From the NCBI GenBank assembly GCA_032718475.1, contig JAUCBJ010008828.1, forward strand, positions 18,172 to 82,171: a stretch of DNA of 64,000 nucleotides. The letters run 5' to 3'. Below are positions 7,384 to 62,437 of this stretch, in pieces (within the stretch, counting starts at the first letter, position 1; every line of letters starts with the position of its first letter). The notes under the pieces are model-generated. The model was not told the DNA's origin and searched no databases. It saw nothing but the letters and a program-made list of their open reading frames with translations. The position numbers and the translations under genes are program-made. Source of the DNA: Nemertoderma westbladi. Taxonomy: Eukaryota > Animalia > Xenacoelomorpha.

Positions 7384-7428
7384 ACAAGAACTGAAAATAA
7401 AGCTAATAAAATATTTAGCCTACTACTA

Positions 7429-8076
7429 TTACTGTAAATGAAATGTTCCCCAGTCCCCCATGAAATGTCCTATCGCTTTACCTAATTTTAAATTAGCTAT
7501 TGCACATCCTACTTCTGCTGCACTTATATTCATATCAGTTGTGTACAGTACTTTATTTAGTTGTTCGTATATGCTACTGCCAACACAAAACTCAGTTACT
7601 CCATTAGTTTTGTTACAATTAAACAATATTTCAAAATCGTTTGCAAAATTACTACAAATTTCTCGTTCACCGGTCGCACCACTAACAACATTGGGTAAGG
7701 GTATTTTGCACGAAATATCTTTCTTCACGGATTTCCAAAATGAATTAAAGTCCTTAGAAAGGTTCGATTGTGCTAATTTATCGACCCGTTTTTGATTTTC
7801 GGAACGTTTACATTGTCTAAAAATACGTTTAAAATTTGCTCTGGCGTTAAGGTAGTCATCATGGTGAAGACTACCCTGCCGAGGACAGCCGGCATCTTTC
7901 CACTGTATAAAAGTATCCCGAGATTCCTCATAGAGCGCTTTAACATGATCATTCCAACCAGGAACGTTGTAACTATTGTTTGAATTCATGTTAATATTAT
8001 TACTCGGTATGGACGTTGACGCACTTTCTACTAAAGCACCTACTATACGGTCCCACAAACTACTAAGATTGTTCAC
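7429..8076 (-). pseudogene. LINE ORF2 linker between endonuclease and RT
   Basis: VPGWNDHVK...W...G.PR.G and FWKSVK motifs; lies between the EN and RT ORFs. Confidence 0.75.
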
Positions 8077-8127
8077 ATGTGATTCATCATTACAGTTTAT
8101 GGAGGTACATGTGAAGGCCTCGGGTAT

Positions 8128-8775
8128 TTATATATTATTCAATGAATCATTAAGTCTACGGTAATTATCGAGTTGCACCGGCCGAGCTGCAGTCCAAATA
8201 AACTTAGTAGGATTTGTAATCATAGTATCGCTTTTATCCGTAGTATTTACCGTAGCGTTAACATTAATATCAATAGTAAATCTTAAAGGTATATGATCAA
8301 TGGTAGCTAGATCATAAATAACATCGACATCCTTAATTAAAGAGTCGGACGTGGTGGTGCTGACAATATGGTCTAACCAAGAGGTGGTACTAAATGCTGC
8401 ACTCACAATTGTAAACGTATGTGGTGGTAATCGTTTTACATCGGACAAAATAATTCCGCAATTAGCGCACCAATCAGATAACTCTCTATAAAATGATTTT
8501 TGTGGCGAGGCATTAAAATCACCGACTATACAGCATTTCACAGTTGGGGCATTATCAATTATTGATTGTATGCGTCCTAGGTACTCTAAGTACAAATCCA
8601 AATTGTCAGATGATTCGAAAGGTAAATATAAATTCAATATTAAAATTTTCGATTTATCCGATAGGTTTACATAAAATCCCATTATTCGTTCATCCGCTAT
8701 ATTTAAATACTCAATAGAAGATGAAATTTCTTCCCTTACCATAACCGCCAGACCTCCATGTGGACGGCCGCGCAA
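8128..8775 (-). pseudogene. LINE apurinic-like endonuclease domain
   Basis: GRPHGGLA, NLYLP, GDFNA, WLDHI, DHIPL; the N-terminal LLQEH lies upstream across a frameshift. Confidence 0.82.
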
Positions 8776-9169
8776 TAATCCATTGGATAAATCTACTGAG
8801 ATTCGCCTCGACAGATAAACTTGTCATCTATTTTCGAGAGGAAACTTAATTCCTGTTTCGGAAGTAGATGCTCTTGTAACAAAACAATATCCGAAATATC
8901 ACACAAAAACCTATCAGTAGAAATCGATTTAGGTGTACGTAGAGTTACAGTTATATGTTGTTATTCTTATTGGATCCATTGTGAATTAATAAGGCCGAAA
9001 TTTGAAATATATGAAAATTAAGGAAAATAAACAAGTACAAAAATATACAATGATATATAAAAGGTGTATATACGTGAATGAATTAAGCGAATCAAATTGA
9101 TACTGCTTAATTATTCATGCTGAAACCCGACGTGAATTATTCTATTCCACTTATATTCGCTGCAAAGGT

Positions 9170-10855: not shown

Positions 10856-11384
10856 TGTGACGGGATCCAGGAGGGATCTCGATTTATCCGGTATTTTAGT
10901 TTACGCGTCCCCGCCGTGTATAAAGAGTAAACGAAACAGTGAATGAGTTCTGATGTTCGGTGTATAATAACTGATGGGTATAAGATATAGATATAGATAT
11001 GTGGAAGGCGGGATATGGTAACTAAAAGTCCCGTGCTCCCCTATCTAAACTAACTAACCTATGCTAGTACTACTGCATTGAGATAACTGAATTACTGATT
11101 AATAGGTTACTGATTATATTGCACGGTTGGCCTAATTACTACCTAATCGATGCCTTGCCCCCCTCTGATTGGTTGATACCCTTGTTGGCGCCCCGTGGAG
11201 TGTTCCCGTTCACTCCACCTGTACTCTCTGGGTTAGGGGTTTGGCCCCTGACCCTTTATTGTGTGCTTCCTTCCCACTCTTATTGGGATGGCACGAGTTG
11301 GTTAATTGCCCAATCTCGTGGCTCCCAATATTGCTTATCGGCTTATAACTTTATGGGGTGTTAGCGGGATTGAGTAAGCTAACA
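10856..11384 (-). repeat. 3' LTR of element A (529 bp)
   Basis: Direct repeat of 24271-24800; about 4 substitutions and 1 indel seen by eye. Confidence 0.95.
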
Positions 11385-11395
11385 CTCCCCCCCAT
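11385..11395 (-). promoter_or_regulatory. Polypurine tract of element A
   Basis: Minus-strand G run plus AG directly abutting the TGTTAG start of the 3' LTR. Confidence 0.85.
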
Positions 11396-12095: not shown

Positions 12096-14631
12096 CTATC
12101 TGTTCCTCCGGGGGTAGTTCCCCCTAGCGTCCTCTTCCCTGGGCCGCTTCTTGGTTATCACCGTTCCTCTGGCATCATCCGCTTTCTGCTTTCGGACCTT
12201 CGCCGCCACTTCCTTGCTGATCCCGGTCGTTGGCTCCTTGGGCGCTGGTGTTATTAGTGCCCGATATCGCTTCGCCGGTGGCCCCTCAGAATGGCCCGGT
12301 TGTCTCCCTCTAGTGGCGTCCCATAGGATCATTTTCATTGCCTTTGGTACGTGCTCCGCCAAGAAATCCCTAAACTCCCTTCGGTTCTCTGGCGTCCACC
12401 TGTCCAGATACCTTTGCGTGTTCATCACTCCAGCGTACGACGCCGCCGTTGCTACCTCTTGGTAGGTAAACGGTAGCCTCCGCTTTATGATTTCCATGTG
12501 AGTCTCCTGATTGATAAGGAAGAAACCCCACTTAAACTCCTGGGCCTTCATGCGCTGGCGCGTCATGGCCCCGACGTCGGCCCACTCCTCGAATCTTGTG
12601 AACTTCTCCTCGTCGTTCATCCAGTCGCACTCGCGTCCGTAGTGTCCCCGAAAGTGGCACTTTGGACATCGGTTATGCAACCGTGGACACGCCCCCATCC
12701 TGTGGCTTGGTTCTCTGCAGTAGAGACAAAAGGTTCCCTGTTGGAACCGGTATAGACAGCTGCTTTCCCGATGGGTCCGTCTCCCACAGTAATCGCAGCC
12801 GAGTACCAATGTCTCCCGTCCCACCTCGTCTTTCGTCCCAAGCGATCTCCGCGGTCTGTGGAGTCGCTGGTAGGCGAATTTCTCTACGTTGGTCTCCCTG
12901 TCTACGTCGATCTCTCCGCCCCTCTCGGGCATCGTCTCCCCGAATACTATCCGTGGTGCCGTCCCCGGTTGCTCGCCCAACCTGATGGTGCTCCCCGCGA
13001 AATCCATCGCCGGCTCCTCGTGCACCCAGGTCCGCTTGCCGGATCTGTTCCAGAAGGCCCTTGCCCCACTGGCCGTCACCACCCTTCCGCCAACCCAGTC
13101 CGTGTCCGAGTGGCCTATCCTCTCGATGGGCGGTATCTCTCCAAACTCGTCGTCGTCGTCCTCCTCTTCTGGTAGTGTCTCCAATCCCGGTATCCCGATG
13201 GATCCACTATGTCCCTTCCCGCCTTGGCTCTCGCCCGTAGCTCTCCATCCCTCTAGCTCCCTTAACTTCCTTGGCGGTTGGTCGCCCTCGGCGCCCGCTG
13301 GTATGGGCATCGTTCGCAACCCCGACGTCGACTGTTTCGGCGATCCCACCGTCCATCCCAATTCTCGCCCTAGAGACTCCCCCGAACTCCCTGACGAAGT
13401 CCAATGAAGTTCGTCTAGGCCCGCCTGTTCCTCGAAGCCGTAACTCTGTGTCCTGGCCTCCTCTTCCCTCTCCTCTGCTTCTATCCTCTCCCGTCTAGCG
13501 ACTTCTTCCAGTCGCTTTGCTTCTCGTCTATCCGTCTCTAACTGCTCCCATCTCTGATACGGTGTATCTGTCTCCCCGTCTACCAGATGTCGGCTGTTGT
13601 AATACACCGACTCGCCCTTCAGCCCCGGGTGGTCTACCAGACCGTCAAAGGCCACTTTAAAGGCTCTCCTGTAGCTTAGGGGTGATCCCGATAACAGAAA
13701 TGCCCCTGGTTCCCTCTCGATAATCACGGTCATGAATAAGTTAAGCAAACTTATCATCATCCAGTCCTCCTGCAGGATATATCGCTTCTGATATACCTTT
13801 ATCGCTCCCCTGCGGAACTGATATACCTCCTGCTTTCCCGGTCTCGCTCCCCACTTTAGCGAGTTCGCTAGTTCTGCCCCGTATTCTTCCCTAAACTTCC
13901 CCCAGGAATACGAGCCCCAATAATTGGCCCATCGCCACCGCCCCGCATTGGCCTGTGTTTTCGACTACCCCCAATCCATCCGGTGCCGTCATAGCCATAA
14001 AGACTTTCTGCATATCCAGGAGGTTGGTGGCGTCCGGACCGATGATCCTCTCCGCGTCCTCGCGAATCGCCGATCCCACTTTCGTCGTCGACTTCTCTCT
14101 TACTAAGACTTGTACCGCTTTCGGTAATCGGTCTAATTTCGGCCCGTCCTTCTTCCCATACGTCCCTAGGTCGAATAAGAAGATGTCCCCATTTGGCGCG
14201 GCCAAATGTAGGAGTATGGTCCTGGCCGACCCTGCCGTTCCTCGTCTCGAACCCGCTTCGTCTTCCACGGTTCCCTCGTCATCTAGGATCATATATCCTC
14301 CTCTGTTGACGGACTCTATGAATCTTTTCCAGTCCTTCCTCGGTGATTCCCTCGGGTATTTCGGAATCCCGAACTTCGCCTCGTCCCCTTTCACCACGTA
14401 GTGGAAGTGTTGGAAGATCGCGTTGTCTAGCGACGGGGTCCCGTAGGTCCCGACCAGCCGCTGTTCGTGCGCCTCCCGGAAGTGATCCTGCAGCGCTCGT
14501 GCCGCGTGACCCCTTTCCAACCTCTCGTAGTATCCTCTCGTCTTCTCTTCCGGATGTCTCTAGGTGAAATCCACCAGTATCTCCTTTCCTCCTGACTCCG
14601 CCTTTCTCTTTCTGATCAACTTACTCGCCAT
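12096..14631 (-). pseudogene. Accessory ORF: DEDDy 3'-5' exonuclease + acidic/disordered linker + three CCHC zinc knuckles (one stop and one frameshift in this copy)
   Basis: ATG at 14631 (MASKLIRKRK), TAG at 14560-14562; YMILDDEG (ExoI), LLHLA..DIFLFDL, LP..VQVLV..STTKVGSAIRED (ExoII), LLDMQ; frameshift near 13890-13960; YQKRYILQED (ExoIII-like); CDYCGRRTHRESSC, CLYCREPSHRMGAC, CPKCHFRGHYGREC. Confidence 0.72.
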
Positions 14632-15119
14632 TCCGAACGTTCACTCGCTCACCTGCAAGGTGGTGCCTTACCAAGGCGCAATACAGATGAGTGATGTATC
14701 TAGGATGTTCTGTACAGTTCGATAATGGCCTACTTCTACTTAACTGCGCCTTTTAACCTAAATTATTCCTAATTAATTTTGAAGCTAGTAAATACACCCT
14801 AATTTCGATTTCTGTCCGTTACTTTTATTATGTTCTAGAATAGCTTCCCTTGTGTTGCCACTATTTTACAATTTTCAGCCCTATTCTATTTATTTATTTA
14901 TTTACTTTGATTCTACTGTCCTACTACTTGCTACTGCCTATGGATTACTCTATTCTCTAATCCACATTCTGGCCTACTCTGTGGGTCTATGCAGTACAGC
15001 AGTATACGTCGTGTGGCCACACGATTTACCCAGCTGTACTCATATGCCCCCCTCTCGCTACTAACTGCTAACTAATATCTATATCTTATATACCCCTTTT
15101 ACTTCTTACTTTCTCTCTT

Positions 15120-15725
15120 CTAACTAACGGTACTACGTACCCTCTAACTCTCTAACTAACTAACGGTACTACGTACCTTCTAACTCTCCTCTAACTATCG
15201 GTACTACGTACCCTCTAACTCTCTAACTAATGGTACTACGTACCCTCTAACTCTCTAACTAACTATCGGTACTGCGTACCCTCTAACTCTCTAACTAACT
15301 ATCGGTACTACGTACCCTCTAACTCTCTAACTAACTATCGGTACTACGTACCCCCTAACTCTTCTAACTAACTATCGGTACTACGTACCCTCTAACTCTT
15401 TAACTAACTAACTAACGGTACTTACGTACCCTCTAACTAACTCTCTAACTGGCGGTACTACGTACCTCCTAACTAACTAACTAACTAACGGTACTTACGT
15501 ACCCTCTAACTAACTCTCTAACTGGCGGTACTACGTACCTCCTAACTAACTAACTAACTAACGGTACTTACGTACCCTCTAACTAACTCTCTAACTAACT
15601 AGCGGTACCACGTACCCTCTAACTAACTTTCTAACTGGCGGTACTACGTACCTCCTAACTAACTAATTAACTAGGTACTACGTACCTTCTTACTAACTCT
15701 CTGCCTACTAACTGCGTACCTACCA
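15120..15725. repeat. Tandem array (~16 units, ~36 bp) of GGTAC-TAC-GTACC hairpins in CTAA/CTCTAA spacers
   Basis: Repeated ctaactaacggtactacgtaccctctaact between the pol stop and the accessory ORF. Confidence 0.9.
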
Positions 15726-15833: not shown

Positions 15834-18800
15834 CTAAGGTGCCCCTTCTAATAGACAACATTTACCTACAGCTCTCCTGTAGGTTTTTCTGTCCTTCGCA
15901 CCTATCTTTCCACCTATCCGCACTTCTACCGATCGGACTCTTCCGTCCTCGTCGGAGTAGGTGCCTACAACTCTCGCCAACTGCCACTGGTTGTTGATGA
16001 TAGTATCATCCGTAACGATTACGAGATCTCCCTCTCTTAACTCCCTGTTCGGCTTCCTCCACTTGCTTCGCTTATGGAGTGTGGGTAGGTATTCCTCGAC
16101 CCACCTCCTCCAATACTCTGCGCTTATTGCTTTAGCGACTTTCCAACTTTGGCGGGAGTGTATGTCATCTGGGTCTACACCCCGCATATCGATGGTCGCT
16201 GGCCTTTCCATCAGGAAATGGCTAGGCGTCAGCACGTCTAATGACTCAGGGTCATCATTCTCCGGATATAGCGGTCTGCTATTAATGATCCCCTCGCACT
16301 TCGCAAGTACTGTCCGTAAGACGTCCTCAGTGACCATGTGGGTGTTCATCAGCTTCGTCATTAGACGCTTTGAACTGCCCACTAGTCTCTCGACGCATCC
16401 TAGTGTATGTGGTGCATACGGCGTCCTTCTCTCCCACTTTACTTGTCGTCGTCTCATGGCTGCCCTGACTTCTTCTCCCTCCAGGATGTCCAAGGCCTCT
16501 GCCATCTCACTCTCTGCGCCCACAAAGTTGGTGCCGTTGTCGCTGTATATCACTGCGATCGTCCCACCTTTGCGGTCCCTAAATCTTTCTAAGGCGTTAA
16601 TGAACGCTGATGCGGTTGCATCTTGGGCGAGTTCTATCCCTACCGCCCGCGTATTGTTGCATACGAAGATAATGCCGTAGCGTTTCTCCGTGTGTCGCAT
16701 CACTTTGATCTTTATCGGCCCGAACATGTCCACACCGCAATGCGTAAATGGCGGGTCGTGCTGTCTTACCCTACTCGCCGGTAGTGGTGCCATCTCCTGT
16801 ACGGCTCGCTCCTTCTTCGCTCGTCGGCAGGTCTGGCACTGCCCCACTACCGCTTTAACCTTCTTCCTTAATTGTTTGACCCAATAGGTCCTCCTTATCT
16901 CTGTGAGGGTTCGGTTGGTGCCCCCGTGCAGTATCGATTTGTGGGAGTCCCATATAATCTGGTGGACTATTGGCGATCCTGTAGGAATGATGATGGGTTT
17001 CGGTGGTACCACTATGCTGTTGTTGTATCCCACCCTAGAATTCATTACTAGAATCCCGTCGTCATTGAGTTGTGGCGACAGCGTAATCAGCTCGCTGTCC
17101 CGTCGGATGTGCTGTTGGTTACCGACGCGTTCCACCTCGTCGCCGTAGTTCTTCCGTTGTTCATAGCGGATCACTGCCTTGGCCGCTCCTTCCAGATCTA
17201 TGGTTGTCCTGATTTTCTTGTCCTTGCCGACTCCCGCAAGGAAATTCCCGAAGGCTCTCCAATACGCCACTAGTTTCTTGGTCTTATACCAACTAGAACT
17301 GTAGCTGAGGAGTTTATCCGTTGGGTTATCGCACAGTTCCCTTCCTGGTTGCACGTCCCTAATCTCCCTCACCATCTGGGAGTATATCTCTTCTCCCTCT
17401 GAATCTCCCTCTTCTCCTTCTGATACTACTTCCGAGCCCGGGTCCACCTTCCTCATCGGCGGCCAGGCCTCCCTATCGCTCAGAAATTGTGGCCCATGTT
17501 GCCACAATACTTCCTTCTTCAGGAAAGTGTGGCGTTCCACGCCCCTCGACAGCAAGTCCGCTGGGTTCTCGTCTGTTGGGCAGTAGTGCCACCTTTCCAG
17601 TTCTGTGCTCGCCCTTATTTCGTCCACTCTATTCGCGACGAATATCGGGTATCTCGTCTTTTCGTTGTGTAGCCAACCAAGCACTACCATGGAGTCCGTC
17701 CAGTAGTGTGTCTCCACTATGTTGGGAATAGTATCCACTAGGTAGGCTGTGGCTCTTACTCCTAGTCTCGCAGCTGTCAATTCTAACTTGGGAACAGATG
17801 CTGAATCTGGGGGCGTTGACTTTGCTTTGCTAAAGGCTAGTCTGGGCCTGTGAGCCCCCTCTCGTTGTACTAAGTAGAGTGCCGCTCCGTACGCTTCCAA
17901 CGACGCGTCGGAGAACATGTGTAGGTCCAGATTCGTCATGTTCCCATCCGGGAAATACACCCTTGGCATGTTGTATGTTCCCATCTTCTCCAAGTTTCCT
18001 GTCCACTTGCTCCACTGTCTCTTGATTTCCTCTGGTACCTCTACGTCCCACTCATCTTTCAATTTGTATACTCTCTTGAGTATCTCTTTCCCCGTGACTA
18101 ATAATGGGGATGCTAGGCCTAGGGGATCGTATATCCTTGCTATATACGATACATAGCCCCTCTTCGTGTGGATGTCTGCGCCCTCCTGGCTCAGCTGATA
18201 CTTCAGTTCGTCTGTCTTTCTATCCCACACGATTCCCAATGCCTTCTGCTGAGATTCTGTTCTCTTAATCGCCATGTCCTGCCCTTTGGCTGTTGTGGGG
18301 TTATCCATGGTCGATTCTGGTTTCCTGTCCTCTATGGCTTTGATAAATTCTTCCGAACTGGATTGGAATTTGGTCAGGTTAAAGCCGGATCCTTTTAGGA
18401 TGTCGCGAACCTCGCGCCCTGTATCCAGTATCTCCTTAACCGTATTCCCAGACTCCATTCCGTCGTCTACGTAGAAGCCACGTCGAATCATATCGACGGC
18501 TCTACCGCTGTATCTATCTTCCTTCCCCTTTACTGTGTCTCTCACTGCCATAGTCGTCGTAAATGAAGACGACTTGGCCCCCATGTTCTGTACTATCATC
18601 TTATATGCTGGTATTATCGGCGGTTCTTCTTCGCCGTTATACCATAAGAAGCGTTGACTGTCGCTATCTTCTTCCGTTACACGGACTTGGTTGAACATGC
18701 CTTCTATGTCACACGTGAAGGCGTGTTTCCCATTTCGAAATCTAAGTAACACCTCTATGCCCGAATTGTAAATGTTTGGGCCTTCTAACAGGTAGTCGTT

Positions 18801-21800
18801 TAAGCACTTTCCGTCGGTCTTTGCCGATGCGTCGACTACCATCCTTAGTTTACCTTTCTTTGGATCTAAAGCCACGTGCAGTGGCAGGTAATATGTTCTA
18901 TCCGTGTTCGGCTCGTCGACCGGTAACTCCACGGCCCATCCTTTCTCGACGTACTTCTTAATCGTCCTGTGGATGTACTCATTCTTCTCGGGGCTCCGTT
19001 TTAGTGTTTGTTTCAGCTTGCGGAGTCTCGTGAACTGTCTGAGCAGTCTTTTAAGCTGCTCCTCTGCTCCCTCATCACCCATTTCCTGCATTGTTCCCGC
19101 GAACATGCATCCTGATGTCTCCGACATCCTAAATGGTATCTTACTCTTGATTGGACCACTCAGCGTCCACCCGAATGGTGTTAATATGGCCACCGGGTCA
19201 CTCTGCTTGTCTTCGCCGAAGACCGTTTGCATTCTTTCGTGGGCTGTTGGGCAGTCCATACCTACTATGATGGATACCTTCCTAACGTCCACGTCTGGGA
19301 TTGAGAAGTCAATGTTGTCCAGGAATTTGTACTGCTCAACCTCGATGTTGGTTGGTCGCCTGGCATTGATATTAATTGACTCTATCACTTGAATGGGGTC
19401 GATTGTTGCCCCATAGTCGCATCCTGGTGCCACTGCTGCAATTGCGCACCATCCTGTTCTCATCTCCAGGATCTCATCTTTGCTAGAGATGGTTGTTACC
19501 GCCATCCTGCTTGGCCTCGTTCTCAATCCTATCTCCTCGGCCACCCATTCCTCGACTAATGTGAAGGCAGCTCCACTATCAACCAGCATTAGTGTTGTTA
19601 CTGATCGATTGCCTTCCCCGATCACTCGTACTGGTACTACTCCAAGTAGCACCGTTCCTCTCTTCTTCGCCCCTACTGTGCTCGTCGCCATCGTTTGGCC
19701 TCTCCTTTGACCAAATTTCATTGGCTTCTCTTTGCACTCCCTTGCTCTATGTCCACTCATTACACATCGCGAGCAGATTTTATTGCTGAACGCATAATCT
19801 ATCTGATCTTGCCTAGGTAGCGCCTGCCAGTACCTGCAGTTCATAGTTTGATGAAGCGCATTTGCGTGTAGCTGACATTTGCTCTTTGGGTCGTAGCCCT
19901 CTTTATACAGTGCATTGCGTATCGCAGTTGCGTTCGTACCAAAGTCCCTACTATTCTTATTGTTTGGGTTTTGCCTATTGGACGTACTGGGGTTATGTTT
20001 ATTCGTGTTATTATTATTTCCCTGTCCATTCCATGATGTTGTCTTATCCTCGGCTAGCTGTGGACTTGCAGTCCCCTGCGTCGCTGCATACGGCAATGAT
20101 TGCCTAAGTCTCGGTAATGCGTTCGATGTGTTGTGCTCTGGTTTCGGTCTATGGTAGTCTGTCTTCGGTCCCTTTCCCAGGCTGTCTTCGCTATAGACTG
20201 GGTCAGTTATTAGTTCAGCCTCGTAGTTTAAGAAGTTTGACATTTCTTCTAAACCCGGTTCCGCACCCTTCTTATCTCGAGTAGAGAAGGCGATTTTTCT
20301 CCACTTGTTGCGCAGCCAGTTTGGTAGTGCCTGCGCTATCGTGGTGATGTTGTTGGACGCATTGAGCTCGTACGGCGCGTCTAGCGTCTTCAGCACGATT
20401 AGCGCCTTTTCGACTTTGTTAGCGAACGTCTTAATGCTAACGGGATTATCCTGCAGGCCACCCGATGTTATGCCCCTCAGCGTCTGCCTGATGATCTTGG
20501 CCGGGTGCCCGTATTCCCTATCCAGTGCCCGCCATGCTGTCGTGAAGCCGCCCTCTATTCCTTGATATTGCCTCACGATGTCGTATGCTGGGCCTCCCGT
20601 GTACACTTGTAGATACTTTAGGCACTCCGCCTGCGTCAAGTTTTTTGTTAGTATTTCGTTACTATACATGCGCCGAAACTGTAGATATTCTTCCGGCCTA
20701 CTCCCATCGAATTTGAATGGTTCCACTGGTGGTAGCTCGATCCTCGTTTTCAACGCATCGATCAACGTGGCCATCCCCATTGCCTGCGCTTCCAATGGAT
20801 TCGACGGGTGCTGTATAGTTTCCCCTGTCTGGTGCGGTTCATCCGTCCTATTTCTCGATCTTCTCTGACTTGGGTATGTCATCGGGGGTAGCGGCCCCCT
20901 CCATATCTCCGTGTCACACGACTTATTCTCATCCAAGGGTCTCGTTGTTCTTGCTCCTATCAGGGTAGATTGTTGATATTGTGATGGGGGAATGTCACCC
21001 TGCCCCCCCCCCACCGGTATGTTTGGTACTGGGGTTGATGTTAATATGTTGGGGCCCATGCACCTATCCGCAATAATTCCCCCCTCCCCTGGGTATATGT
21101 TATGTCCCTGCATGCTGTAGTCATACTGCTGTGCTGGTACCGGTATAGGCCTATCAGCTTCTGGCCTACCCGCCGGTATGTATTCCGCGACTTCCGGGTT
21201 TAATCCCGTTGTCCACGCTATCCTATCGCCTACATTGCCCCTCTCAGTATGGCCTATGGTATGTGCAGTAAGGCCTACAGTATGTCCTACAGTCTGCATG
21301 TGTTGTTCGGGATCGAAGTTTATTCTTCTCGAATAATCCTCCCCGCGGCTACCGTATTCTCGATCGGTAGGTATATCCCGTCGGAAAGTTTCTCTTCGAC
21401 CCCCCTCTCTACTGTTCTCATCTTCGTACCGGTACATCGCGTACCCCTCTCTCGGCGCGTAGTGCGCCTCGCCGGGTCGCATCCCTCCGGGGCGACGGCA
21501 ATCTCCCGGAGTCCGACCCCACTGACTCTCCGTTCTCATCTCGACTATCGACGGCTCGCTATCCGTCCTCGCTCTTCTATCGTTCGCGGCGATACTTCTA
21601 CTACTGTCTTCCTTTCTTCTCCTATCAGTGGAATATTCCCGCTCGTGAGATCTCTCGTCGACCTCCCGGTTAAACCCCACTGTTCTTCTTCCTTCCTCTG
21701 ATCGGGCTCGACGCTTCATCCGCCCTCTCGCGACGTCAACCCGGCTCTCTCTGCTCGGTTGCACGCCGCTGGGGATATCCGCAATCCCCCTATTACTTTC

Positions 21801-22622
21801 CGTCGCCGGTTGTTGCGGTTTACCTATTTCGGCCCTCGCATTATCCACTGACGGCTGTGGGACACTCTCTGCACCCCCCCTTTCGCCGCTAACTTGCTGT
21901 TGTGGGGTTCTCGTAGCCCCCCCCCAATCGCCACATCTAACTTCGCTACTCCTCACCTCGCTACTATATCCCTCTCCAGTCGACACATCAACCCTACCGC
22001 GGTCGGGTCTATTCACCCCCGCTTCTCCTCCTGCTATTGCGTGGCCTTCCAGGCCCTCTACTCCCTGTCTACCAACTACGTGGCCTACCAGGCCCTCTGC
22101 TCCCTGCCTACCAACTACGTGGCCTACCAGGCCCTCTGCTCCCTGCCTACCAACTACGTGGCCTACCAGGCCCTCATCTGCCTGGCCATATACGCCCGAC
22201 GCGTTTACATTAATAGCACCCGTATTGGAAACAGAATTAATTTGTCCGTTTGAAATAAAATCACTTGGATTATCTTGCGCGACTACACTATCTGAATTAT
22301 TTTGTAAATTCGGGCTCGCTGAATTATTTAAGTTATTTAGATTATTTTGTGTTATTGCATTACTTAAATTATTTTCTAAGTTCGAATTTCGGTTATTACT
22401 TTGATTAATTGGATTATTTTGCGTAGCTACATTAACATTAGAATTATTTTCTACACTAATATTAGGAATGTTCTTATTTAAATTTAAATTACTACCACTA
22501 GGTAAAGTATTGCCTGCAATAAAGGTTTGATTAGAATTGTCCCATACGGTACTATTAATATTAACCACGTCTACTGTACCATTATCATTATTACCCCCCC
22601 CCCCCCGCCCGTACGGTCGCAC
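15834..22622 (-). CDS. pol: BEL/Pao Gag-Pol polyprotein (Gag with zinc knuckles, aspartic protease, RT, RNase H, integrase)
   Basis: KFDG gag core, CSRCVMSGHRAREC, LVDSGA, DIEGMFNQV, FYVDD, FSDAS, WTDS, NPADLLSRG, HCGVDMFGP, SDNGTNFVGA, WRRWVEEYLPTL..RSKW. Confidence 0.95.
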   Translation of the reverse strand: MRPYGRGGGGNNDNGTVDVVNINSTVWDNSNQTFIAGNTLPSGSNLNLNKNIPNISVENNSNVNVATQNNPINQSNNRNSNLENNLSNAITQNNLNNLNNSASPNLQNNSDSVVAQDNPSDFISNGQINSVSNTGAINVNASGVYGQADEGLVGHVVGRQGAEGLVGHVVGRQGAEGLVGHVVGRQGVEGLEGHAIAGGEAGVNRPDRGRVDVSTGEGYSSEVRSSEVRCGDWGGATRTPQQQVSGERGGAESVPQPSVDNARAEIGKPQQPATESNRGIADIPSGVQPSRESRVDVARGRMKRRARSEEGRRTVGFNREVDERSHEREYSTDRRRKEDSSRSIAANDRRARTDSEPSIVEMRTESQWGRTPGDCRRPGGMRPGEAHYAPREGYAMYRYEDENSREGGRRETFRRDIPTDREYGSRGEDYSRRINFDPEQHMQTVGHTVGLTAHTIGHTERGNVGDRIAWTTGLNPEVAEYIPAGRPEADRPIPVPAQQYDYSMQGHNIYPGEGGIIADRCMGPNILTSTPVPNIPVGGGQGDIPPSQYQQSTLIGARTTRPLDENKSCDTEIWRGPLPPMTYPSQRRSRNRTDEPHQTGETIQHPSNPLEAQAMGMATLIDALKTRIELPPVEPFKFDGSRPEEYLQFRRMYSNEILTKNLTQAECLKYLQVYTGGPAYDIVRQYQGIEGGFTTAWRALDREYGHPAKIIRQTLRGITSGGLQDNPVSIKTFANKVEKALIVLKTLDAPYELNASNNITTIAQALPNWLRNKWRKIAFSTRDKKGAEPGLEEMSNFLNYEAELITDPVYSEDSLGKGPKTDYHRPKPEHNTSNALPRLRQSLPYAATQGTASPQLAEDKTTSWNGQGNNNNTNKHNPSTSNRQNPNNKNSRDFGTNATAIRNALYKEGYDPKSKCQLHANALHQTMNCRYWQALPRQDQIDYAFSNKICSRCVMSGHRARECKEKPMKFGQRRGQTMATSTVGAKKRGTVLLGVVPVRVIGEGNRSVTTLMLVDSGAAFTLVEEWVAEEIGLRTRPSRMAVTTISSKDEILEMRTGWCAIAAVAPGCDYGATIDPIQVIESININARRPTNIEVEQYKFLDNIDFSIPDVDVRKVSIIVGMDCPTAHERMQTVFGEDKQSDPVAILTPFGWTLSGPIKSKIPFRMSETSGCMFAGTMQEMGDEGAEEQLKRLLRQFTRLRKLKQTLKRSPEKNEYIHRTIKKYVEKGWAVELPVDEPNTDRTYYLPLHVALDPKKGKLRMVVDASAKTDGKCLNDYLLEGPNIYNSGIEVLLRFRNGKHAFTCDIEGMFNQVRVTEEDSDSQRFLWYNGEEEPPIIPAYKMIVQNMGAKSSSFTTTMAVRDTVKGKEDRYSGRAVDMIRRGFYVDDGMESGNTVKEILDTGREVRDILKGSGFNLTKFQSSSEEFIKAIEDRKPESTMDNPTTAKGQDMAIKRTESQQKALGIVWDRKTDELKYQLSQEGADIHTKRGYVSYIARIYDPLGLASPLLVTGKEILKRVYKLKDEWDVEVPEEIKRQWSKWTGNLEKMGTYNMPRVYFPDGNMTNLDLHMFSDASLEAYGAALYLVQREGAHRPRLAFSKAKSTPPDSASVPKLELTAARLGVRATAYLVDTIPNIVETHYWTDSMVVLGWLHNEKTRYPIFVANRVDEIRASTELERWHYCPTDENPADLLSRGVERHTFLKKEVLWQHGPQFLSDREAWPPMRKVDPGSEVVSEGEEGDSEGEEIYSQMVREIRDVQPGRELCDNPTDKLLSYSSSWYKTKKLVAYWRAFGNFLAGVGKDKKIRTTIDLEGAAKAVIRYEQRKNYGDEVERVGNQQHIRRDSELITLSPQLNDDGILVMNSRVGYNNSIVVPPKPIIIPTGSPIVHQIIWDSHKSILHGGTNRTLTEIRRTYWVKQLRKKVKAVVGQCQTCRRAKKERAVQEMAPLPASRVRQHDPPFTHCGVDMFGPIKIKVMRHTEKRYGIIFVCNNTRAVGIELAQDATASAFINALERFRDRKGGTIAVIYSDNGTNFVGAESEMAEALDILEGEEVRAAMRRRQVKWERRTPYAPHTLGCVERLVGSSKRLMTKLMNTHMVTEDVLRTVLAKCEGIINSRPLYPENDDPESLDVLTPSHFLMERPATIDMRGVDPDDIHSRQSWKVAKAISAEYWRRWVEEYLPTLHKRSKWRKPNRELREGDLVIVTDDTIINNQWQLARVVGTYSDEDGRVRSVEVRIGGKIGAKDRKTYRRAVGKCCLLEGAP

Positions 22623-23293
22623 CAGTTTTGAGTCTGTCGTGCGGTCCCTGTCAGTGGGGTATCAATAAATGTATCTACGGCCCCCGGCTCCCCAAAAATA
22701 CTCGAGCCGGCCCCGCTTTCAGACGGCGACGCTCGCACCAGTTGCAGCTCGTGCGCCCGTCTAATCTTATCTTCCGCAAGCACACTCTGGCGTCTCTTTA
22801 ATTCCTTGTGCTCTCGTTCAGCCTCTGCCATTCTCCTCTCACACTCCTGGGTGTCCCGGGCGGCCGACTCCGCTACACTCCTAATGCTCTCCCTTCGTCT
22901 CACCTCGCGCTCCTTGCGTTCCTTTTCCCTTCTCGCCTCATGTTCCTTGCGTTCCTTTTCCCTTCTCGCCTCATGTTCCTTGCGTTCCTTTTCCCTTCTC
23001 GCCTCATGTTCCTTGCGTTCCTTTTCCCTCCTCGCCTCATGTTCCTTGTGTTCCGCCTCACGCTCTTTGCGTTCCCTATCCTCCCTCGCCTCACGCTCCC
23101 TACACTCCTTTTCCTCTATTTCCTCACACTCCCTAAGGCTTCTCAAAGCCCTTTCGGCCCTCTCTCCGGTTTCTCTAATCAATGCCGCTTCCCTCGCTAA
23201 CCGCACTCTCCCCTCCTCTAACCGTTCCTCCATTTCCCTCTGACCTTGTTCTACCATGTTGAGACGGTATGCGGCACCTATCTCTCTCACCAC
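22571..23293 (-). CDS. Coiled-coil N-terminal Gag segment of element A (frameshifted from the main ORF at a poly-C run)
   Basis: Same strand, overlaps the main ORF at the homopolymer near 22594-22606; 33-bp repeat encoding HEARREKERKE. Confidence 0.6.
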   Translation of the reverse strand: MVREIGAAYRLNMVEQGQREMEERLEEGRVRLAREAALIRETGERAERALRSLRECEEIEEKECREREAREDRERKEREAEHKEHEARREKERKEHEARREKERKEHEARREKERKEHEARREKERKEREVRRRESIRSVAESAARDTQECERRMAEAEREHKELKRRQSVLAEDKIRRAHELQLVRASPSESGAGSSIFGEPGAVDTFIDTPLTGTARQTQNWCDRTGGGGGVIMIMVQ

Positions 23294-23328
23294 TCTTTCT
23301 TTCGCGGAGGATGTAGCAGACTTATCGG

Positions 23329-24204
23329 TTACGACGGACCCCCTCCGCCTTCCCGACCTACTAACTTTCCCCCGCCTCCCGGAACTTTCTCCGACCGACG
23401 AGCTGAATCCTCGGGGTTAACCTCGGATTCGCCCCCCTCGGGTCCCCTCCAACCCACTAATTTTACTCCCCGGGCATCGACCAAGTATGGCCCTATGTAC
23501 ACTGGCGCTACGCTAGGTTCCATACTCCCACACTCCCATAGTTCAAACAGTTCGCCGGCAACCCCTTTTGCTCTCTCCTCGGCTAGTTCTCTCTGCCCAA
23601 AACGTATTAGGTAATTAAAGTGTCTATCCGACTCACCTAGTCGCTTTCTCAGTCTCACCTCGTCTACCTTCGCCCCTTCCTTCTTGGCGTCCTTCATTAG
23701 CTTCCGGGTCGCGTTGTAGGCCCGTCGAAGTCGCTCTGAAACCCCGACGTCCTCGTCGCCGACCTCTCCTCCGTCCCTCCGGGTTCGACGTCGTACCGGC
23801 GGCTCCACCGTCGCCGTTCCGGTGGGCCGTCCGTCGCCCTCGGCCTGTAGCTGGCCGGCGACATCGGTACCGATGTCTCCTCCGTCTCTCTGCGTCCGGG
23901 GCCGCACCGTCGGCCCCACCGTCGCCGTTTCGGCGGGCCGCTCGTCGCCCTCGGCCTGTGGCTGGCCGGCGACACCGGTGCGTCGACCCCCGTCCCGTGT
24001 CGACTCGTCTCCGTCTCCCTCCGTCCCGCTCTCTCTTTCTCTCGGTTCGACCTCGGGTTCCAGGCCCCCCTCGTCCTGAACTGCCGGATGACCCGTTACC
24101 GATGGGTCCGGCGTTGTGGGCCTGTATCGCCTGGTTGCGGCCTCGCGGATCGTTAGGTCTTCGTCCGGGGTCCGCGTCGGTGTCGTGTCACCTGACTGAC
24201 TCAT
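23329..24204 (-). CDS. Probable true N-terminus of element A Gag (frameshifted)
   Basis: First ATG lies 67 nt inside the 5' LTR boundary; purine-rich codon bias like the rest of gag. Confidence 0.55.
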   Translation of the reverse strand: MSQSGDTTPTRTPDEDLTIREAATRRYRPTTPDPSVTGHPAVQDEGGLEPEVEPRERESGTEGDGDESTRDGGRRTGVAGQPQAEGDERPAETATVGPTVRPRTQRDGGDIGTDVAGQLQAEGDGRPTGTATVEPPVRRRTRRDGGEVGDEDVGVSERLRRAYNATRKLMKDAKKEGAKVDEVRLRKRLGESDRHFNYLIRFGQRELAEERAKGVAGELFELWECGSMEPSVAPVYIGPYLVDARGVKLVGWRGPEGGESEVNPEDSARRSEKVPGGGGKLVGREGGGGPS

Positions 24205-24260
24205 CCTCTTCTGCAGATTTCGGTGGCTAGTGGTTGAGTTTTATCTGGGGCGGCAGCTGG

Positions 24261-24270
24261 TTTTAGTTAC
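24261..24270 (-). promoter_or_regulatory. Non-tRNA primer-binding site candidate GTAACTAAAA (complementary to LTR 24433-24442)
   Basis: Abuts the 5' LTR, lacks TGG, and is a perfect inverted repeat of an LTR-internal segment. Confidence 0.7.
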
Positions 24271-24800
24271 TGTGACGGGATCCAGGAGGGATCCCGATTT
24301 ATCCGGTATTTTAGTTTACGCGTCCCCGCCGTGTATAAAGAGTAAACGAAACAGTGAATGAGTTCTGATGTTCGGTGTATAATAACTGATGGGTATAAGA
24401 TATAGATATAGATATGTGGAAGGCGGGATACGGTAACTAAAAGTCCCGTGCTCCCCTATCTAAACTAACTAACCTATGCTAGCACTACTGCACTTGAGAT
24501 AACTGAATTACTGATTAATAGGTTACTGATTATATTGCACGGTTGGCCTAATTACTACCTAATCGATGCCTTGCCCCCCTCTGATTGGTTGATACCCTTG
24601 TTGGCGCCCCGTGGAGTGTTCCCGTTCACTCCACCTGTACTCTCTGGGTTAGGGGTTTGGCCCCTGACCCTTTATTGTGTGCTTCCTTCCCACTCTTATT
24701 GGGATGGCACGAGTTGGTTAATTGCCCAATCTCGTGGCTCCCAATATTGCTTATCGGCTTATAACTTTATGGGGTGTTAGCGGGATTGAATAAGCTAACA
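24271..24800 (-). repeat. 5' LTR of element A (530 bp)
   Basis: TG...CA ends, followed by TSD CATAT. Confidence 0.95.
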
Positions 24801-30706: not shown

Positions 30707-31227
30707 AGGTGATACGAGGTTGATTGCCAATCAACCTCGTATCACCCCAATAACCGGGGCGACAAACCCCAAAGGGACACACACAGCGGGGGTCAGAGGT
30801 TACACCTCCGGGAGGGAGAGAGTGACAGCAGCCGGGGGAAACACTCCCAGAGAGATGGGAGGGCGAGAATTGGGTTATTAGCCAATGGGGGGGAGGCATC
30901 CACTGAGTAATGTAATACGGCCAACCAGTGCAATATATTACCAGTTATTGTTCCTCATTTATTTCACTCAGTTAGTCAGTTTAGTTAGGACAGAACGGTG
31001 ACTTCTATTACCGTCCACTGCCGCCATCATTCACTTATACTTTACCGGTACATTATTTCTTCACTCCAACAACTGTGTCTATGCTTATTCTATATCAGTC
31101 ATATTATTCTATATCAGTCGACAAGATCAGAACTCTCAATCCAACTATAATAACTCTTTTCACTCACACGGCGGGGACGCGTAAATAGAACCACCGGGAT
31201 AAATCGGGATTCTCGGATCCCGTCACA
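30707..31227 (+). mobile_element. 5'-truncated LTR of a family related to element A, at the junction between the duplicated segments
   Basis: Ends ggcggggacgcgtaaa...gataaatcgggat...ggatcccgtcaca like the A LTR; shares ggccaacc.gtgcaatat, gttag.cagtttag and gactt.ta.ttaccgt blocks. Confidence 0.75.
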
Positions 31228-31969: not shown

Positions 31970-34900
31970 CTACTACTAGGTCGAGCGAACTCGGACAGTG
32001 GAAATGAGATCCTTCCAGGCTTCCCGATTCTCCATAGTTGTCGCAATTTCGTTTCTCTCAAGTTCAGTATCCCTTTCAAGTTGATCTATATATGTTATGG
32101 CAGGTCGTCCACGACTACGCTTTCCATGAGTTGGTTGCCAGAGAAGTAGATCTGGTATGACCTCGTCTTTACTTCGCCAGCAGTGCCCACTGAATCTTAA
32201 TCTGCGTTCACGGAGGGTGGTTGATACAGGTGGTATTGTACCATAAAGCTCGGCGTTTGTCATGTGTTGTCTCCAGCTGATGTTTAGGGCTGCCCTTAGT
32301 AGTCTTGTGTAGCAACCATCAATTCGTTGTTCAAGTGATTTAGTCAGTGTCCAGGTCTCACCGCCGTATAAAAATACACTTTCCACTGTGGCTCGAAAGA
32401 ACTTAGTCTTCAGGTGCCTGGAGAGATCTGATTTCCAGATGGTATCCATTTTTGATAGAGCTACCCAAGCCTTTGCTTTCCTAACTTCTATGTCCTTTTT
32501 GCTACTCTCTATCCATGATCCAAGGTACTGGAAGTCATCGACCTTCCTTAGTTGATTATTATCAATGGTTGTCAAGTTTCCATCAACATTAAAGGTCATG
32601 AATTCGGTCTTGGTAGCATTTATATGTAATCCAACCTCCTTAGCAGCCCTCTCCACTTTATTTAGTAGAAGCTGTGCATCTGCTAGCGTATTAGAGAGCA
32701 GGGCGATGTCATCCGCAAAGTCGGTGTCTGTGACTGTAGTTGCCGGATATCTACTACTTCTGCGTTCTTGAAGTGTGAATCCCAGATCTTCACCCTTTGT
32801 GGCCGTCCTCATTGCGTAATCCAGCACAATTACAAATAGTAATGGTGCTAATGTGTCACCTTGCAGTACGCCAGCCAGGATTGAGAAAAACTCAGTTTCA
32901 CCATCTGGTGAGAGTACCTGCGCTTCTGTGTCACAATATAACAATCCAATGCCAGCAACAATTACTTCTGGTATTCCATAAGCTCTTAGGATTTCAAGCA
33001 TTTTACCTCTATGGATGGAGTCGAATGCCTTCTTGAAGTCCACAAAAGTCATGACTGCGGGGAGATTCTTTGACTTAATTCCTTCAATCAGTCTCCGTAG
33101 TGCAAGTATCTGAGCTATTGTTGATCTACTTGGTCGAAATCCGTTTTGGCTCTTACGCAGTAGTTTCTCTATGTGAGGCCTAATCCTATATAGAATCATT
33201 TTATTGTATATTTTGGCAGCTACCACAAGCAGACAGATCCCACGATAGTTTGTTGGTATGCCGAGGTCTCCTTTCTTGGGGAGAGGCTTTAGTTGACCTT
33301 TAGTCCAAATTGGTGGTGGCTTTTCCCCTTTTAACATCCGGTTGCAAACATTCAATAATGGTCTATTTAGCACTCCGGTTTTCCATACCTCCGCTGGGAT
33401 TTCATCTAATCCACTCGCTTTATTATTGGACATGCTTTTAATGCTTCTTTGGAGTTCGGCAGGTGTGAAGTCCCCTGTTTCTATAGGTAGTGTCTTGTCA
33501 TATATTTTCCTTGTAGGGCTGACCTCGATGTTTGGTGGCTGCCCAAGCAAGTTGCTGAAGTGATTTTTCCACTTCCCAACACGTTCTTCAGGACTATCGG
33601 CTTTGAGGCGCCCCTTTGCACAACTTTTCCGACCAGATACCTCATTTACAGTTTGCCAGGTAAGTCTTGATTGTTGCTGTATGTGAGCAGTTGTAATTGC
33701 TTCAGTTTTATCCTGTATGTACTTTTCCTGGCTGATGTTGTAGGCCAATTTAAGATCGTCCTTAGCTTTCTCAACCTTGTTAATGTTTTCGGTTGTTGGT
33801 TGTTCGGTTTTAACTTTGTAGGCTATCTTAAGATCTTCTCTCTTACAAGTAACCTCAGAGTTTTGCCATGGCACATACTGTTTTCGTTTAGGTTTCTGGG
33901 GGATATGCCTCTTAGCTGATTCCTTGTGGGCTGTTATTATATTCTGGTATATTGAATCGGTGGATTGGTCTTCATCCATTGACTGAAGTGCTTCAAAGCG
34001 GTTTCGAACTTCTACTGTATAAGCATCCTTTACAGCATTGTCAGTTCTGAGTTTCTCCCAGTCATAGTTGATTTGCTTGCTTGTCCTGGGTTTGCTGGCT
34101 CTCAAACTGAGTCTGATCTCTGCAGTCACAATTCTGTGGTCCGAACCAATTAGGTTGAACGAGCTGTATGCCTCGCAGTTGATCATGCTATTTCGCCACT
34201 TTTTGTTTATAAGGATGTAATCCAGTTGTGCTTTGGTTCCATTAGGGTATTGAAAGGTCCATAGCTTCCCCTTACTCTTTTCGAATGTGTTGTTTGTTGG
34301 TATCAATTCACATTCTTCCATTAGGTCTAAAAGTAAGTACCCATTTCTGTTAGAACTGGTGTTATAGGTGTAACCCTTGATGTCTTCTGGGCCAATTTGC
34401 GCATTCAGGTCACCAGCAATGACTTTAACATTGTGTTTCGGGATGTCCTTAATAAGTCCAGTCAGTTCTTCATAAAACTTGACTGCTTGTTCTGGCTCTG
34501 ATGCATTGGTTGGACTGTAGCAACATATAACTGTTGTCTTGGGATTCCCATCAAATGTTGCGATCATAACCCTGGAATTTATAGATTCGATGTTGTTTAG
34601 GGTCTTAAGTGCAAATGGGCTTAGCAGAATTCCTACTCCACCAATTGATGCATTGGCCGAGTTTCTTACTGCTGAGCTTGTTACTAACGTCCATCCATTT
34701 CCAATGTCATTGTACTTCATGGCAGTGTCTTCATGACAAATCCGATGTTCTTGGATGCAGATGATGTCGATGTTATATTCCATTGCCAGAGCGACCATGT
34801 CACCCTGTTTGCTCTGTGCTTTCAGCGTGCGTGCGTTCATTGTAGCAATCTTTAGTGTCTTTTTACATTTCAACAGGTTGGTTCTTCTTTCTTCTCTGTC

Positions 34901-35331
34901 TTCTGTTCCAGTAGCCAATTTATCGACCCCAGCCTGGTGTACCACTGAGGGACGCGGTCCTTGTTGACCCGGGCGACGACCGAGCCGGTATTTCTCCTGG
35001 AGGGTTCTCATACTCATATCTTTCAGTTGCGGGAGTAAACCGCTTGTGGTCGCAACTCCTACAAGCGTCTTCGCAGTAGGCCGCCGTTGGTTGATTACCT
35101 TCCGCCGACCTTGTCAGCATGTCTAGCCGTTGGTTGATTACCTTCCGCCTATTCATGGCCTACAGCCCTGCTGCCGACTGTAGGGGTCCATTTGTTACAC
35201 CCTGAACCAAGTGTGCCTCCTGGGTTAGGTTACCTAACACTGGTAGAGGAGCATCCAGTATAGACAGGGCGGGGCTTGTATCATCTCTAATGCAGATGCG
35301 TATCAAGCCTTTGCCTTCAATTTTGCCTTTT
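31970..35331 (-). mobile_element. Full-length RTE-clade LINE with (TAG)n tail and ~11-bp TSD
   Basis: TSD tttagagtaaa at 31959-31969 and 35332-35342; the empty site is present in copy 1 near 26690. Confidence 0.93.
31976..35017 (-). CDS. RTE endonuclease-reverse transcriptase, intact 1013 aa
   Basis: IATMNARTL, CIQEHR, GDLNA, QLDYIL, GSDH; FVDFKKAFDS, GVLQGDTLAP, FADD, YLGS; C-terminal GKRSRGRP. Confidence 0.95.
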   Translation of the reverse strand: MSMRTLQEKYRLGRRPGQQGPRPSVVHQAGVDKLATGTEDREERRTNLLKCKKTLKIATMNARTLKAQSKQGDMVALAMEYNIDIICIQEHRICHEDTAMKYNDIGNGWTLVTSSAVRNSANASIGGVGILLSPFALKTLNNIESINSRVMIATFDGNPKTTVICCYSPTNASEPEQAVKFYEELTGLIKDIPKHNVKVIAGDLNAQIGPEDIKGYTYNTSSNRNGYLLLDLMEECELIPTNNTFEKSKGKLWTFQYPNGTKAQLDYILINKKWRNSMINCEAYSSFNLIGSDHRIVTAEIRLSLRASKPRTSKQINYDWEKLRTDNAVKDAYTVEVRNRFEALQSMDEDQSTDSIYQNIITAHKESAKRHIPQKPKRKQYVPWQNSEVTCKREDLKIAYKVKTEQPTTENINKVEKAKDDLKLAYNISQEKYIQDKTEAITTAHIQQQSRLTWQTVNEVSGRKSCAKGRLKADSPEERVGKWKNHFSNLLGQPPNIEVSPTRKIYDKTLPIETGDFTPAELQRSIKSMSNNKASGLDEIPAEVWKTGVLNRPLLNVCNRMLKGEKPPPIWTKGQLKPLPKKGDLGIPTNYRGICLLVVAAKIYNKMILYRIRPHIEKLLRKSQNGFRPSRSTIAQILALRRLIEGIKSKNLPAVMTFVDFKKAFDSIHRGKMLEILRAYGIPEVIVAGIGLLYCDTEAQVLSPDGETEFFSILAGVLQGDTLAPLLFVIVLDYAMRTATKGEDLGFTLQERRSSRYPATTVTDTDFADDIALLSNTLADAQLLLNKVERAAKEVGLHINATKTEFMTFNVDGNLTTIDNNQLRKVDDFQYLGSWIESSKKDIEVRKAKAWVALSKMDTIWKSDLSRHLKTKFFRATVESVFLYGGETWTLTKSLEQRIDGCYTRLLRAALNISWRQHMTNAELYGTIPPVSTTLRERRLRFSGHCWRSKDEVIPDLLLWQPTHGKRSRGRPAITYIDQLERDTELERNEIATTMENREAWKDLISTVRVRST

Positions 35332-39696: not shown

Positions 39697-40920
39697 TGTA
39701 AAAGCTTTTGCGTAATTAGCCGGTTATTATCCCCGTAAAGTACTCTGTGGTTGGTTTACCAGGCATAAAAAGGCCGTGTCCTTGCTGTACTGGTGTTTTG
39801 GAGGACATAAAAGCCATTTCTTCTGTATTTGTACTTTAGAGGACATAATCTGCAATTTCGTGACGTAAAAGCTCGATACTCTTGAAAACAGTGTCGCTAC
39901 CATGACGACGGCTAACGGCTGATATTGCCACGTTGCCCCATAGCCCTGCCTTCTGTATCTGCCAATAGGATTTGAGTTGGTTTTGATTTTGACCTATCAC
40001 AGATCTACTGAACTGAATTTCCTATCTGTATGCTCATTCTCTGTGGTGGGTGAGATCTTTGTAGAATAAGGGTAGCTGGTATTCTTATAGTTATTCTTAT
40101 CAGTTTTTAGTGTTGTTGGTGATTCTAAGCCAGGAAGAACGGCTTTAGCCCTACACTAGTAGGCTTAATTATAAGGACATATATCCGTTATCTGCATTTA
40201 TCACAACATAACATACCATACCTAATCAAACAACCTGTGCATACTTTATATTGTTATACTGCTATTTACTGTCAGTTCTTCATAATATGGTTGATGAATT
40301 ATTATATTTGGAATAACGATAAATAACCCCGAAACCCAATATTCTTGATATACCGAAGGTAGGAGAGAAGGGTTACATATAACAATTGTGACTTATGTTA
40401 AAGTGGTTTGAAGTGAATCTAATGTTATTTGATAGACCCTACATGATTCGGTCCGTGTTCCTTTTATATGTGACTAAAATCAGTGAAGATCGGCAGATTA
40501 GTGTGCAGTATTGTGCAGCATTGTGTATGAGTGAGACTGATAACGAAGCATTTCCTAAAGAATGCGCCATATATGTGAATTGTAACTAAGCCATATCGTT
40601 GTGAGTAGTTTAAGTCATAACTCTGTTTATATAGATAGAGCGCCACGTCCTAAAGGAACTGTTAATATTCCCCGAAGGTGAATAATATTGTCAGAGATTA
40701 TATAATACTGTCAGTCGAATAATACATTAGGCTTACATAGCAATACGATTAAGCTGTCGAAATCAATCTCCCGGGTATATCCAACGGGTGAATGATCGCG
40801 CACAGATTGGTTTCAACTAGTGTAGTGAATCAAATACTTGTTAGAGGCTAAAGCGATTTATTATCTAGAAGACATCCTAATTTGGCGGGTTAAACTGCCA
40901 AAGGTCTGAAAGCGCGAACA
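39697..40920 (+). repeat. 5' LTR of element B
   Basis: Direct repeat of 50786-52009; only 2 differences noticed. Confidence 0.95.
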
Positions 40921-40931
40921 ATAACGGATAT
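40921..40931 (+). promoter_or_regulatory. Non-tRNA primer-binding site candidate ATAACGGATAT (complementary to LTR 40181-40191)
   Basis: Abuts the 5' LTR, lacks TGG, and is an 11-nt perfect inverted repeat of atatccgttat. Confidence 0.72.
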
Positions 40932-41049
40932 TTAGTCTGTATTGCAGTGTAGGCATTAAATACAGTTTAATATTGTTCTGGTAAGAACAATAACGGATAT
41001 AGCTTCTTTATTGCAGTAAGCAATAAAGTTGAAAGTACCGGTTGACCGG

Positions 41050-53810: not shown

Positions 53811-53821
53811 TACTACTACTA

Positions 53822-62200: not shown

Positions 62201-62437
62201 TCTACTGTCTGGGTGGCTGTGGTCCGGGGGTCTAATGTCTGGTTGGCTGTTTTCCGGGGGTCTACTGTCTGGGTGGCTGTTGTCCGGGGGTCTGATGTCT
62301 GGGTGGCTGTTGTCCGGGGTCTACTGTCTGGGTGGTTGTTGTCCGGGGGTCTACTGTCTGGTTGGCTTTTGTCCGGGGGTCTACTGTCTGGGCTGCTGTT
62401 GTTCGGGGGTCTACTGTCTGGGTGACTGTTGTCCGGG
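56256..62437. repeat. 30-bp GT-rich satellite (~205 units) with ~2.1 kb higher-order repeat
   Basis: Consensus GTCTGG(G/T)TGGCTGTTGTCCGGGGGTCTA(C/A)T. Confidence 0.97.

Follow-up and report, generated by a model that had tools for sequence, protein, structure and literature searches.

A BEL/Pao retrotransposon of Nemertoderma westbladi with a primer site complementary to its own LTR

Among LTR retrotransposons, self-priming has been described for the Tf1/sushi group and Tcn1 and predicted for the TAR lineage, in the available parts of two papers (PMC6317226, PMC4600332). Tf1 and Tf2 of S. pombe, Tj1, the Tf1/sushi group and Tcn1 (Ty3/gypsy) have no tRNA primer binding site (PBS); instead, 10–11 nt behind the 5' LTR pair with a segment of the LTR. 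The primer in Tf1 is its RNA's first 11 bases, and RNase H cleaves to free it, according to the accessible part of PMC7175516. For the TAR lineage (Houba and Osr-1, plant Ty1/copia), self-priming is by prediction only, on the rule that a complement of at least 10 bp starts 0–5 bp behind the LTR (PMC6317226, in the part available).

The BEL/Pao elements are a different case. The ICTV profile of the Belpaoviridae (PMC8742986) gives an 18-nt PBS for host tRNA-Arg or tRNA-Gly, tRNA priming and a genome of 4–10 kb, and calls their replication poorly understood. No self-priming BEL/Pao element was found in the accessible parts of the open full-text literature (a scope outside which Repbase Reports, GyDB, subscription papers and supplements fall), including those of PMC554778, PMC3118150, PMC6238403, PMC3601003, PMC2774666, PMC5006619, PMC5443660 and PMC5445492; a term look-up for a passage on the PBS or priming in the available text of PMC554778, PMC3118150, PMC6238403 and PMC2774666 found none. 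An earlier note on the DNA considered here had likewise known of no such description.

The stretch of Nemertoderma westbladi DNA analysed here (the window, 64 kb) is animal-type and rich in repeats. It includes two elements, designated A and C, in each of which at least 10 nt behind the LTR are complementary to an LTR segment, as in Tf1-type elements and under the TAR rule. LINE-type elements (endonuclease and RT), partly in pieces, are found at 6127-8823, 31976-35113, and 53819-55459.

Anatomy and class of element A

Element A has the following parts.

24800 to 10856, minus strand: element A as a whole, spanning 13.9 kb with extra open frames
24271..24800, minus strand: 5' LTR, 530 nt, TG..CA
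10856..11384, minus strand: 3' LTR, 529 nt, 98.9% alike to the 5' LTR
11385..11395, minus strand: polypurine tract (PPT), adjoining the 3' LTR
15834..22661, minus strand: gag-pol open frame, 2275 aa, with DUF1759, protease, RT (YVDD), Peptidase_A17/RNase H, integrase and DUF5641

The target site duplication (TSD) ATATG flanks the element on both sides. Pfam domains in the gag-pol frame follow the order DUF1759, Asp protease, Peptidase_A17 (1.8e-39), Integrase_H2C2, rve, DUF5641, and RT, RNase H and integrase motifs are readable in it. The closest homologues of the protein are BEL/Pao proteins, at 35–40% identity, those with names coming from fish, echinoderms, a cnidarian, nemerteans and a pseudoscorpion. 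By its domain set and order, LTRs, TSD and PPT, element A is a BEL/Pao (Belpaoviridae) retrotransposon. It shares the domain set and order, TG..CA LTRs, 5-nt TSD and PPT of canonical members (Belpaoviridae, Semotivirus), but these have an 18-nt tRNA PBS and 4–10 kb, whereas A has no such PBS and is longer. The absence of the PBS named by the ICTV is the departure, and as 11 relatives do have TGG, the assignment rests on the proteins. No chromodomain was matched in A by a Pfam domain search. Element A would work like Tf1 and yet is not a member of the Tf1/sushi group, its polyprotein not being that of a Ty3/gypsy chromovirus. Near-identical LTRs and intact TSDs indicate recent movement of both A and C, and A is a young element.

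Several further features lie within A. Between integrase and the 3' LTR there is an extra open frame of 622 aa (12096-13964, minus strand) with three CCHC-like knuckles; it has no Pfam match, and its leads in the Atlas are zf-CCHC/DUF8363 clusters, under 0.9. The frame may encode an RNA chaperone for the element. Two more open frames (22571-24240, minus strand), of 303 and 281 aa when counted from stop to stop, precede gag-pol, with internal repeats and no Pfam match. The 3' region includes a tandem array of 16 copies of a 36-nt unit (15113-15694).

Primer sites of elements A and C

The sequences at and around the expected primer site of A are listed below.

24261..24270, minus strand: PBS position, GTAACTAAAA, 10 nt, offset 0 behind the 5' LTR
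24433..24442, minus strand: LTR segment X, TTTTAGTTAC, LTR positions 359-368, exact complement of the PBS and putative 3' segment of the primer
24443..24485, minus strand: upstream extension, with marginal imperfect pairing to 24260-24223
24223..24260, minus strand: leader behind the PBS, partner of the extension

TGG is absent at the PBS position and over the 70 nt that follow the LTR, and no tRNA or Rfam family has a match within the window. TTTTAGTTAC stands in the orientation of a primer: its distance from the LTR end is 162 nt, and its 3' C pairs with the base that immediately follows the LTR. The coordinates in the earlier note were all correct on re-reading, and the sequence bears out its two central observations, that no tRNA-type PBS or TGG follows the 5' LTR and that the LTR holds an exact complement with its 3' C at the U5 edge. 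When the LTR is shuffled with its dinucleotides kept, the 10-mer turns up in 23 of 20000 cases, or in 56 of 20000 if offsets 0–3 are allowed. Within A, a 10-nt LTR complement is found at 15 of about 12,880 internal positions, position 1 included. The imperfect pairing over ~45 nt that had also been proposed does exist as a duplex (−31.0 kcal/mol for extension and core together); 122 of 2000 shuffles of the extension pair equally well, so that on its own it is only marginal. Contigs of four runs, too short to reach the LTR segment, cover the PBS region and have variants at 24259, 24261, and 24264.

Element C has the same geometry on the opposite strand.

39697..40920, plus strand: 5' LTR, 1224 nt; 3' LTR at 50786-52009, 99.8% alike; TSD TACTG
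40921..40931, plus strand: PBS position, 11 nt, offset 0, no TGG; equalled in 16 of 20000 shuffles
40181..40191, plus strand: LTR segment, exact complement of the PBS

The extension in C is matched by 37 of 2000 shuffles. The Gag proteins of C and A are 23% identical, and the frame of C has no match to the RT of A; C is a distant BEL/Pao element with the geometry of A in other letters. The PBS starts ATAAC in C and GTAAC in A, compared with ATAAC in Tf1 (PMC11042837, in the part available).

Most of pol is missing from C (43222-47730, plus strand), despite its 99.8% identical LTRs and TSD, and C is a recently mobile non-autonomous copy. It is inserted within RT-like sequence. Its LTR end and PBS are repeated about 70 nt downstream (40985-41001, plus strand), so that the LTR segment has a further complementary site there. 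A variant 3' LTR of the same family (62438-63670, minus strand; about 92%), whose 5' part is beyond the window edge, has other letters in the primer segment and on that basis predicts a different PBS; a 30-nt satellite (56100-62440) adjoins it.

Relatives in other animals

Relatives were sought with a protein-profile search for BEL/Pao loci in the host DNA of genome bins and metagenomes. Of 117 loci screened, 59 had no repeat pair, no LTR end or PBS could be used in 16, and 11 were dropped as near-duplicates. The 31 counted are non-redundant families in which the end of the LTR can be read; 11 of them have TGG and 20 do not. For the latter, a repeat pair sets the LTR end in 12 (with a visual adjustment in one of them, L066), and in the other eight the end was inferred visually, with the pairing in view. 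All went through one pipeline, which allowed offsets of 0–9 and accepted both unbroken matches and those spanning a GT..AG intron of 40 nt or more, with shuffled controls; the splice-donor list was set after the loci had been seen.

A self-complement of 10–13 nt is present in 19 of the 20 non-TGG families (11 of the 12 where the repeat pair fixes the LTR end) and in none of the 11 TGG families, where all are 4–7 nt. Four of the 19 matches are contiguous, and 15 are found only across an LTR intron. In family L001 the exact match is 8 nt long, and across the intron 10 of 11 positions pair. When A and C are added, shuffles as good as the real sequence number at most 6 of 300 in 20 of 22 families; L001 (23) and L038 (19) have more. 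No two of these 22 families share a PBS sequence, and each PBS is matched by the LTR of its own family. Since in 15 of 20 relatives the match is present only across a GT..AG intron, its partner should be the RNA of the element rather than DNA or a shared host RNA, and a PBS matching an exon junction would be best explained by spliced element RNA as that partner. The commonest TGG site among the relatives is one that we take to fit tRNA-Tyr. In viral contigs, a U5 motif search and the protein profile were both without result. Five prokaryotic genome bins (G001–G005) include animal contigs with intact BEL/Pao elements (38 PF05380 matches); these contigs are host contamination.

A quick tree of RT/RNase H was made from 33 rows, with no usable row for L017 or C and with L027, L049, L050, L062, L135, L137–L139 and L141 left out as near-duplicates. 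Element A and 21 self-complementary rows fall on one side of a branch (SH-aLRT 96), together with one TGG row, L067. The priming-site label changes twice on the tree, compared with a mean of 9.3 when shuffled and none of 500 shuffles with as few, and the AU test does not reject a single clade for the self-complementary rows (p=0.16). On the tree, families with contiguous and with spliced matches are intermixed. Element A itself is a long branch, with a best identity of 38%, and a starred branch separates it from the other self-complementary rows. L067, nested in the self-complementary group, is sister to L035, in which a TGG lies a few bases behind the self-complementary site; from this placement, the two are possible transitional forms.

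The R/U5 stem and a candidate route of priming

The features below come from folding of the leader, from a related solo LTR and from motifs in the LTR.

24309..24330, minus strand: U5 arm of a predicted stem, with an echo of the PBS (24319-24309) and a bulged C (24320) opposite the putative cut
24422..24432, minus strand: downstream arm of the predicted R/U5 stem, pairing with 24330-24321 in the fold
24276..24296, minus strand: 8-bp hairpin predicted by the fold at the U5 end, beside the PBS; kept in B with a shorter loop region
24501..24536, minus strand: TATA-like AATATAA (24536-24530) and Inr-like TCAGTT (24506-24501), read from the sequence
30708..31227, plus strand: solo LTR B, of a family related to A; 5' edge uncertain; segment 31003-31011, U5 echo 31181-31190

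The U5 echo of the PBS at 24319-24309 was missed in the earlier note. With the uncut leader folded from three possible starts and at two temperatures, segment X is predicted to lie on the echo (p about 0.9) and barely on the PBS (0.00–0.08). The predicted stem continues for 10 pairs behind the segment, with the AC|C bond opposite the bulged C. In solo LTR B the stem and its bulges are retained: where T has become C, the partner A has become G, and the loss of a G is balanced by the loss of a C. The stem is thus kept between A and B by compensatory changes, one paired substitution and one paired deletion. A primer built by splicing was also considered for A and rejected, the best junction giving 8 nt compared with 10 nt unspliced, and the AG being missing in B.

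Across the 22 families the match ends 3' in AC (16), AT (4), or CT (2). A U5 pattern of three pairs, one bulged base and two pairs across the bond is found in 12 of the 22, with 2.2 expected, and the bulged base is C in 10, with 0.5 expected; cuts shifted by 1–4 bases give the pattern in 2–5 and the C bulge in 1–2. These counts are post hoc, since counting began only after the motif had been noticed, and related families do not form independent cases. AATAAA or ATTAAA follows the putative cut in 16 of 22 families, a placement that fits self-priming because strand transfer needs it; neither is present behind the cut in A.

Nicking the A leader in silico at 24433 raises the pairing of segment and PBS from 0.05 to 0.84, but nicks at 24433-24427 and 24322-24320 all flip the fold. 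Of the 20 relatives, four flip clearly, eight are already paired when uncut (two of these fall after the nick), and eight stay at or below 0.36. A site-specific, general switch in which the cut flips the fold is therefore unsupported, and the nick switch is a model for A, not a rule.

The motifs AATATAA and TCAGTT are presumably a TATA box and an initiator. If so, the RNA of A probably starts near 24504, about 62 nt upstream of segment X, and such a start would make the primer about 72 nt long. The likeness to Tf1 that the earlier note drew, in which the first 11 nt of the RNA pair with the PBS, holds for the self-complement of at least 10 nt; the Tf1 picture itself, taken unchanged, probably does not fit, with a start placed upstream by motifs and a predicted R/U5 stem. 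Unlike the Tf1 primer, the segment in A, from another superfamily, is probably about 60–70 nt inside the RNA and is predicted to lie on the U5 echo before cutting, and most of the relatives complete theirs only by splicing. The primer is probably longer than that of Tf1. What is new here is the predicted pairing of segment and U5 echo in uncut RNA, together with a putative cut after AC opposite one bulged C.

For the earlier proposal of tRNA-independent priming in a BEL/Pao element, the class, the lack of a tRNA-type PBS and the self-complement at the primer position stand as observed; priming itself we infer from them. Element A quite probably starts minus-strand synthesis from a 5' fragment of its own RNA, which a cut after the AC at 24433 would free. 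Transcription from the 5' LTR would start upstream of segment X, on the motifs probably near 24504. The segment and the 11 nt behind it would then pair with U5, leaving one bulged C opposite AC|C, a step supported by the compensatory changes in B and by the relatives. A nuclease would cut at AC|C, after 24433, and leave a 3'-OH; the likeliest candidate, by analogy with Tf1, is the element's own RNase H, though within this model that is a toss-up. The freed end would shift to the PBS (predicted at 0.05 to 0.84 for A), perhaps tethered by the upstream extension, and RT would copy 162 nt of U5/R and then jump to the LTR copy at the 3' end. When the primer is copied in plus-strand synthesis, the PBS would presumably be rewritten from the LTR segment, so that the pair stays matched; in Tf1, about half of the cDNA retains a PBS copy at its end (PMC11042837, in the part available). 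Counted against self-priming of A are the minor PBS pairing in uncut RNA, the unspecific nick flip, the post hoc motif, the missing poly(A) signal, the marginal extension, the long branch, the nested position of L067 and the PBS variants.

The pairing could instead belong to a folded leader (a packaging, translation or dimer switch), and the host would supply the primer RNA, for example half of a tRNA or a small RNA. We consider this unlikely. The preference of uncut RNA for the R/U5 stem would suit it, as would the half-tRNA primers without TGG known in Ty1/copia lineages (PMC6317226, in the part available), but it sits poorly with 22 different sites that are each matched in their own LTR, many after splicing only, and with a pairing that begins right at the LTR edge or a few bases past it, ends in AC or AT, and is absent from the TGG families. 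It is likewise improbable that element RNA primes without an internal cut, as a short LTR transcript acting in trans or from a start just upstream of 24442 as in Tf1. In the model an 11-nt fragment pairs with the PBS equally well (0.8–0.95), solo LTRs such as B exist, and the start near 24504 is itself a prediction from motifs; against this, TATA- and Inr-like motifs lie 60–100 nt upstream, the spliced relatives require the first exon, and the stem conserved across the AC bond suggests a cut in cis. Coincidence, or a single template-switch duplication in a copy whose tRNA PBS had been lost, could draw on an AT-rich 10-mer, a marginal extension and the single 5' end of family A in the window, but is very improbable: two elements of the window share the feature with 19 of 20 relatives, LTRs that hardly differ and TSDs that are intact show recent movement, and contigs of four runs cover the PBS region.

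Returning to self-priming by a cut element RNA, its widest form would be that a whole aquatic branch of BEL/Pao primes itself unlike Tf1: a long 5' fragment would be cut at AC, where a single bulged C faces the bond in an R/U5 stem, and would shift from there to the PBS, with most families splicing an LTR intron to make the primer end and A being an intron-free form. We hold the case for this to be evenly balanced. The putative cut is defined to one base and has a shared structural mark, so it can be tested directly by mapping RNA ends. If the reading is true, BEL/Pao would be the third LTR superfamily to do without tRNA, after Ty3/gypsy and, by prediction, Ty1/copia; such elements would escape control through tRNA supply or tRNA fragments, and it would explain why annotation based on the PBS overlooks them.
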